From assembly GCF_003334385.1 (NCBI RefSeq), contig NZ_QOWN01000111.1: DNA of 1,567 nucleotides; one strand, 5' to 3'. How positions within the stretch are numbered: the stretch's first letter is position 1; each line of letters begins with the position of its first letter. Positions 506-568 of this stretch are shown here, one piece after another. Origin of the DNA: Escherichia coli. Its GTDB lineage: Bacteria; Pseudomonadota; Gammaproteobacteria; Enterobacterales; Enterobacteriaceae. Position numbers and translations under genes: made by a program. The notes beneath the pieces were generated by a model. The model made no database searches. It saw only the letters and a list, made by a program, of their open reading frames with translations, and was not told where the DNA came from.

Positions 506-568
506 TTCACTGACCGGAACAGATAAACCTGTCCGTGGGCAGAAACCGATAAATCCTGATAAATATCC

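Follow-up and report, generated by a model that had tools for sequence, protein, structure and literature searches.

Results

Organization of the lysis cassette

The window, by which we mean the whole stretch of 1,567 nucleotides of E. coli DNA that was analysed, is a lysis cassette from the late operon of a lambdoid/Stx-like E. coli prophage. Its segment 420–700 is 100% identical to a prophage in E. coli strain EC2 (locus L001), which also matches the window across the 146 nt surrounding the start of the endolysin gene R. The cassette runs in the order holin, ydfR, spacer, SAR-type endolysin R, a 336-nt insert and Rz, with the following parts:

1..150, plus strand: 3′-end of the class II holin gene (S), assigned from PHROG holin matches, the annotation of the identical EC2 locus and comparison with locus L009
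155..505, plus strand: ydfR (DUF1327 / YdfR family), 116 aa, 'MKKKYELVV...' allele, assigned from matches to phrog_406/2091/1085 and the RefSeq name 'YdfR family protein'
506–568: spacer between ydfR and R, 63 nt
569..1102, plus strand: endolysin R (rrrQ-like lysozyme, 177 aa), assigned from the match to phrog_7 (endolysin, E = 2.7e-60) and the RefSeq name 'lysozyme'
1439 onward: start of Rz

The last bases of the holin gene hold a GGGGAGAG Shine-Dalgarno (SD) sequence that serves ydfR in the window, and ydfR ends with TAA at 503–505. The N-terminus of R carries a Gly/Ala-rich, SAR-like segment, YGLSAAVLALIGAGASA, and diversity in R at codon positions 1, 2 and 3 is 0.105, 0.098 and 0.305, respectively. 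ATG 569 is the sole possible start of R, because an in-frame TGA TAA lies at 557–562 and the next Met would drop the SAR segment.

Some further features of the cassette lie outside the spacer. A 9-nt tandem repeat, CTGACGAAC, is present in 2.3 copies in the region encoding the holin C-terminus (window 82–102). The 336-nt insert between R and Rz (1103–1438) has no counterpart in K-12 Qin and mEp460, where the stop codon of R instead overlaps the start of Rz; in 933W-type phages this place is taken by ant. Within the insert we find a strong terminator-like hairpin followed by a T run (1193–1225, plus strand, 15 pairs), placed in the middle of the lysis operon, a hydrophobic ORF of 37 aa (1324–1437, phrog_4493) that leaves a single nucleotide before the Rz ATG, and two promoter-like sites on the minus strand (1321->1292 and 1136->1107). 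A minus-strand ORF of 134 aa (window 502–906) overlaps the spacer and the 5′ half of R. It matches phrog_22558 through residues 1–106 only, the part that is antisense to R, and this family was apparently built from antisense 'shadow' ORFs of older Stx-phage records, such as Stx2 II ORF c76. The third codon positions of the ORF coincide with those of R, and it is very likely not a gene.

The R start lacks a Shine-Dalgarno sequence in all upstream contexts

Related loci were gathered by an exact 23-nt pattern inside R (+13..+35 relative to the start codon, codons 5–12), to which loci from annotated genomes were added; the pattern lies inside R and the sampling is therefore independent of the spacer. 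The comparison set of 116 loci contains 93 haplotypes, and the 70 nt upstream of R fall into 25 distinct sequences (upstream classes).

An SD was defined as at least 4–5 nt complementary to the core of the 16S 3′-end (CCUCC), about 5–10 nt before the start, and no such sequence precedes R in the window or in any of the 25 upstream classes. The sequence-only reading had claimed that R starts without an SD, and the pairing energies bear this out: the best duplex with the anti-SD in −20..−1 of the window has −2.3 kcal/mol (UGAU:AUCA, off the core), and a random 20-mer from the window outperforms the R leader in pairing with the anti-SD in about 81% of cases. For the neighbouring genes in the window the corresponding energies are −8.6 (ydfR), −11.5 (Rz) and −9.4 kcal/mol (the small ORF at 1324), whereas they range from −0.9 to −3.2 kcal/mol over the 25/25 upstream contexts of the R 5′ module. 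The absence of an SD is a universal and conserved property of the R 5′ module studied here. Other R lineages do have an SD, which is strong in the 933W type (−8.6 kcal/mol) and moderate in homologs from Klebsiella phages (−4.8 and −7.3 kcal/mol, at 74% and 50% identity). It had also been proposed that the endolysin may be regulated differently from the upstream genes, and we agree in so far as it is initiated differently, because the absence of an SD is conserved, unlike the situation in the neighbouring genes, which have SDs, and in the 933W-type R.

Only the last nucleotides of the spacer are conserved

Within the spacer the following features were delimited:

506..545, plus strand: variable mosaic left part, a recombination joint and insertion hotspot (diversity 0.535; homology breaks)
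515..535, plus strand: predicted hairpin of 7 bp with A519 bulged and loop ATAAAC (minimum free energy −6.8 kcal/mol)
522..527, plus strand: distal GATAAA, within AACAGATAAA
546..565, plus strand: 10-nt tandem duplication CCGATAAATC / CTGATAAATA, which holds the two proximal GATAAA(T) copies
558..568, plus strand: GATAAATATCC, conserved core of the putative R translation-initiation region, delimited from diversity, anti-SD energies and local accessibility

Across the relatives only the last ~10 nt before the ATG, (G)ATAAATATCC, are kept. Positions −8..−1 (AAATATCC) are near-invariant with a mean per-column diversity of 0.044, a value that none of the 164 runs of eight third codon positions in R matches or beats and that falls among the lowest 4.7% of 8-nt windows in the R coding sequence, so that this segment is constrained like the best-conserved coding sequence. 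Further from the start, −23..−9 with the middle GATAAA has a mean diversity of 0.30, which is the level of R third codon positions (0.26–0.36), and −63..−24 with the hairpin and the distal GATAAA has a mean of 0.535 and is largely non-homologous.

The left part of the spacer is a mosaic. Homology to various relatives ends at window 505, 516, 542–544, 553, 559 and 578, and the upstream classes form a nested series in which the joints stay at least about 10 nt from the ATG. The distance from the upstream plus-strand ORF to the R ATG varies from a 4-nt overlap to a gap of 343 nt, and an antisense ORF lies in some of the gaps; gaps of 16, 36, 42, 50, 55, 63, 65, 233, 319 and 343 nt occur in the other classes. 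The upstream gene itself is also variable, as some ydfR genes have extra C-terminal domains or extensions (171–329 aa in total), some cassettes have a different gene of 185–209 aa in place of ydfR, and in 6 of the 25 classes ydfR is absent from the upstream sequence at hand (1–2.5 kb) while the R start region is kept.

In related prophages a minus-strand ORF of 86–92 aa (phrog_2411 or phrog_2572) lies inside the gap between ydfR and R. These ORFs, at 1046–1318(−) in L004, 689–961(−) in L007, 677–949(−) in L008 and 1235–1495(−) in L010, run against the late transcript, partly overlap the ydfR 3′-end and are moron-like; no sigma-70-like promoter for them was found in the homologous intergenic region of L004. 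The window spacer contains no promoter-like site on either strand, which speaks against a leaderless transcript or one from an internal promoter.

The possibility that nothing in the spacer is selected, and that the conserved 8–10 nt merely hitch-hike with the 5′-end of an R gene that is translated poorly or by chance, must be weighed at this point. Conditioning on the +13..+35 pattern may lower nearby diversity through linkage, and the first and second codon positions at the R 5′-end are themselves very conserved (0.03–0.05). However, R codons 2–3 lie nearer to the pattern than −8..−1 and yet are variable (diversity up to 0.46); linkage to the pattern therefore fails to explain the invariance of −8..−1, which is moreover lower in diversity than every one of the third-codon runs mentioned above. 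At least ten independent recombination joints, furthermore, all stop short of −10. We regard hitch-hiking as quite improbable; the comparison indicates that the last ~10 nt of the spacer are under purifying selection, and −8..−1 is presumably kept for initiation.

The region around the start is also distinct in composition and in predicted structure. Positions −20..+15 of R are 71% A+T as compared with 50% in the window, a local fold places the R AUG in a 20-nt A-rich loop, and −10..+10 are predicted to be unpaired with a probability of 0.054, which ranks at the 97.5th percentile of window positions.

The hairpin and the GATAAA repeats

The imperfect hairpin noticed in the sequence-only reading does form in folding, with CGGAACAG (515–522) paired to CTGTCCG (529–535), but a functional structure it does not appear to be. 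Its stability is ordinary, as 15 separate places in the 1567 nt of the window carry a 21-nt hairpin that is at least as stable, and the fold of 500–600 has z = −0.44. It is complete only in the classes of the window and of L036. Over the 15 homologous spacer classes, its pairing is possible in 55.9% of alignment cells, a proportion reached by 139 of 500 shuffles and equalled by slid controls, and RNAalifold gave a consensus of −3.6 kcal/mol with no covariation. A scan of the window against Rfam at E <= 1 returned two sub-threshold chance matches only (rimP leader and GcvB). The pair counts, the consensus folding and the ordinary stability rule out the hairpin as a conserved cis-regulatory RNA. 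There is likewise no terminator-like site in 506–568 that could act as an intrinsic terminator or attenuator, the hairpin being followed by GUGGGCAG. With no sign of selection in the comparison, the hairpin is best read as a lineage-specific accident.

GATAAA is found at 522–527, 548–553 and 558–563 as had been described, and the proximal two copies are really GATAAAT, 10 nt apart. The window holds 6 copies where 0.8 are expected, and none of 20,000 shuffles that kept the spacer's composition gave three copies. The triple is non-random and fits an origin by short duplication: the distal AACAGATAAA is a 9/10 copy of AACCGATAAA (544–553), and the tandem at 546–565 is almost perfect in some R variants, where it reads CTGATAAATC/CTGATAAATA.

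The sequence-only reading had offered two explanations for the repeats, a protein-binding site or simply an AT-rich spacer. [quoted passage not shown] We nevertheless consider such a site extremely unlikely. Conservation of the motif in homologous cassettes holds for the ATG-proximal copy, as part of ATAAATATCC, and fails for the other two, so that neither conserved units nor a conserved spacing of the kind seen in direct-repeat operators are present. The middle copy occurs in 73% of haplotypes with diversity at the level of synonymous sites, the distal copy is confined to a minority of classes (only window/L036, L004 and L008), and neither gives a sign of selection in the comparison. The left copy of the tandem is dispensable, as it is missing in the classes of mEp460, K-12 Qin, L012 and L020, which function with one copy or a variant. 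There is, in addition, no nearby promoter-like site to be regulated on the DNA and no Rfam match, and the start region is kept in the classes without ydfR; a YdfR-dependent mechanism that needs obligatory co-occurrence of ydfR is ruled out by these 6 of 25 classes (1–2.5 kb upstream). Fur and IHF boxes were compared with the repeats by eye and matched them poorly. The second of the two explanations, an AT-rich spacer, is the closest to the truth.

A predicted long-range helix and possible coupling to ydfR

In wider folds the R start is no longer open in the window. An additional feature is needed to describe this:

348..358, plus strand: UCAUGGAUGUU in ydfR (codons F-M-D-V), complementary to the R start at 562–572

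These two segments are predicted to form an 11-bp helix of UCAUGGAUGUU with AAUAUCCAUGA that includes the start codon, with a pairing probability of ~0.99 in the fold of 300–700 (400 nt) and of ~0.98–1.0 in a −450..+150 context in all five classes with the F-M-D-V allele of ydfR. The helix would bury the start codon in the window allele, which clashes with an unstructured start unless ribosomes translating ydfR hold the region open, and in the window cassette it could thereby tie the translation of R to that of ydfR.

A well-known precedent is the 'Min Jou' interaction of the MS2 coat and replicase genes, in which an upstream coding region gates a downstream start by long-range RNA pairing. 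In the same manner, the helix might sequester the R start so that only ribosomes translating ydfR, which has a strong SD, would melt it. The window shares with MS2 an upstream translated segment that can pair over 11 bp with a downstream start, the AUG included. Its duplex has −15.4 kcal/mol, a value that 1000 dinucleotide shuffles of the sequence upstream (−9.4 +/- 1.6 kcal/mol) attained in only 0.4% of cases. The window differs from MS2 in that the helix is not conserved among relatives, being found only with the 'MKKKYELVV' allele of ydfR (5 of 25 classes, 22 of 93 haplotypes), and in that covariation is absent, the R strand of the helix being invariant. In L036, whose spacer differs by one base in the last 70 nt and which carries the other ydfR allele, the start is fully open (probability of being paired 0.04), and the start region is equally conserved where ydfR is missing. 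Other, GC-richer 17-mers from the window find equally stable partners 44% of the time, and the fold of the whole region has z = −1.21. Taken together this makes coupling at a distance a rather unlikely explanation, and the helix is probably a by-product of one ydfR allele that encodes F-M-D. We note that two ydfR alleles, 60–66% identical in protein, accompany nearly identical spacers and R genes.

The idea that endolysin translation is coupled to the upstream gene did not hold as a general mechanism. With upstream distances between a 4-nt overlap and 343 nt, proximity coupling cannot be general, and six classes are without ydfR altogether. A more specific version is termination-reinitiation, in which ribosomes that end ydfR at the TAA remain bound to the mRNA and begin again at ATG 569. 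It is plausible in cassettes of the K-12 Qin type, in which the stop of ydfR and the start of R share an ATGA and the leader homologous to that of the window is ydfR coding sequence; in the window, too, frame 0 is open from 480 up to the same ATGA. Against this, the window has a gap of 63 nt and most other classes have 16–343 nt, some with antisense genes in it, the overlap is confined to the Qin type with 8 of 116 loci, and frame 0 contains no start codon within the window. Reinitiation at the R start of the window is thus very unlikely. Frame 0 is open over the end of ydfR and the whole spacer (480–572) and ends at the TGA of ATGA as ..PINPDKYP*, which echoes the ..HHKYL* C-terminus of K-12 YdfR, where the stop codon lies within the overlap with rrrQ. 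The open frame may have been left over from an overlapping arrangement, or ydfR of K-12 may have been extended into the leader.

Discussion

We suggest that the spacer between ydfR and R is made up of a recombination joint and of a start for R that is autonomous and independent of an SD, rich in A/U and locally without structure, and we consider this reading probable. The right-hand ~10–23 nt, (CCGATAAATCC)TGATAAATATCC, would be R's own translation-initiation region, which ribosomes most likely enter by an SD-independent route, ribosomal protein S1 probably helping to capture the A+U-rich and predicted single-stranded start. The left-hand ~40 nt would be variable filler from recombination between cassette modules, which in related prophages is replaced, shortened or loaded with extra genes, and the two proximal GATAAA copies are a 10-nt tandem duplication of the AT-rich leader. 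To judge from its retention next to such different upstream sequences, whether these overlap R by 4 nt, leave a gap of 343 nt, include antisense ORFs or lack ydfR, the R start appears to be autonomous and would work regardless of what lies upstream. We infer that R is translated from ATG 569 from the conservation of the gene and the viability of phages, and this start is found in the isolated viable phages mEp460, BP-4795, YYZ-2008 and Stx1 phages.

It is known that the start regions of genes without an SD are less structured and that a lack of structure is enough for initiation without an SD (Scharff et al., 2011, PMC3121790), that S1 promotes initiation on mRNAs with a weak SD or none (Nakagawa et al., 2017, PMC5397173), and that there are A/U-rich leaders that bind S1 (Komarova et al., 2005, as cited in the papers we draw on). 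The R start resembles these SD-independent leadered sites of E. coli in its lack of complementarity to the anti-SD, its A/U-rich, S1-suited leader and first codons, its locally unpaired AUG and its position on a leadered mRNA, the long late transcript, and initiation driven by S1 and unfoldedness would fit these properties. It differs from the class, which has no conserved motif, in that 8–10 nt (AAATATCC) are near-invariant, in that the long-range helix could mask the site in the window, and in that translation here is predicted.

The strict invariance of AAATATCC exceeds what a generic requirement for an AU-rich and unstructured leader would call for, and it is possible that it contains an unrecognised sequence-specific determinant. 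In the viral collection, the start-site motif together with ATG precedes this lysozyme family only. A search for the motif followed by a second codon other than that of R, as would be expected for a start site that is portable to other genes, gave only more R variants and chance matches without ORFs. One could go further and imagine AAAUAUCC-AUG-A..AAA as a dedicated control point for the dose or timing of the SAR endolysin in place of a generic SD-less site, perhaps read by a specific factor, gated by the helix in the F-M-D-V allele, which would make endolysin synthesis dependent on ydfR translation, and with YdfR possibly acting on the late mRNA, a scenario that we find highly improbable. 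We found nothing on R translation in the literature on ydfR, rrrQ and DUF1327.

Comparison with two known cassettes puts the R 5′ module into context. The 933W / Stx2 cassette shares with the window the holin, an R protein that is ~93% identical from codon 4 on, and the same position in the late operon. In 933W, however, R follows S at a distance of 4 nt and is led by the GGGGAGAG SD, which in the window is occupied by ydfR, and the 933W R 5′ module encodes MSRKLR... whereas that of the window encodes MNAKIR... behind an SD-less leader, with the homology break at 578. Together, ydfR and the SD-less R 5′-end look like a module that was inserted or swapped between S and R codon 4, with 578 as its breakpoint (window 121–157 compared with L009 960–994). 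The K-12 Qin cassette, essD-ydfR-rrrQ-rzpQ, shares with the window the gene order, the R 5′-end and a homologous leader, CATAAATATCT-ATGA. It differs in that this leader is the 3′-end of ydfR (...HHKYL*), so that the ydfR stop overlaps the rrrQ start in a classic coupling arrangement, whereas the ydfR of the window terminates 63 nt before R and in another frame.

For biology at large these results change little, because SD-less, AU-rich starts are common in E. coli. The R start is nevertheless a case that gene callers and calculators of ribosome binding site strength will under-predict, though it is real and conserved. Mosaic phage genomes reveal functional limits, and the R module is a clean example of this, as the nested joints place its minimal functional 5′ boundary at about 10 nt. 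Finally, the doses of endolysin produced from the SD-led 933W-type and the SD-less, ydfR-linked R 5′ modules likely differ, which is relevant for the engineering or expression of Stx and lambdoid lysis cassettes.
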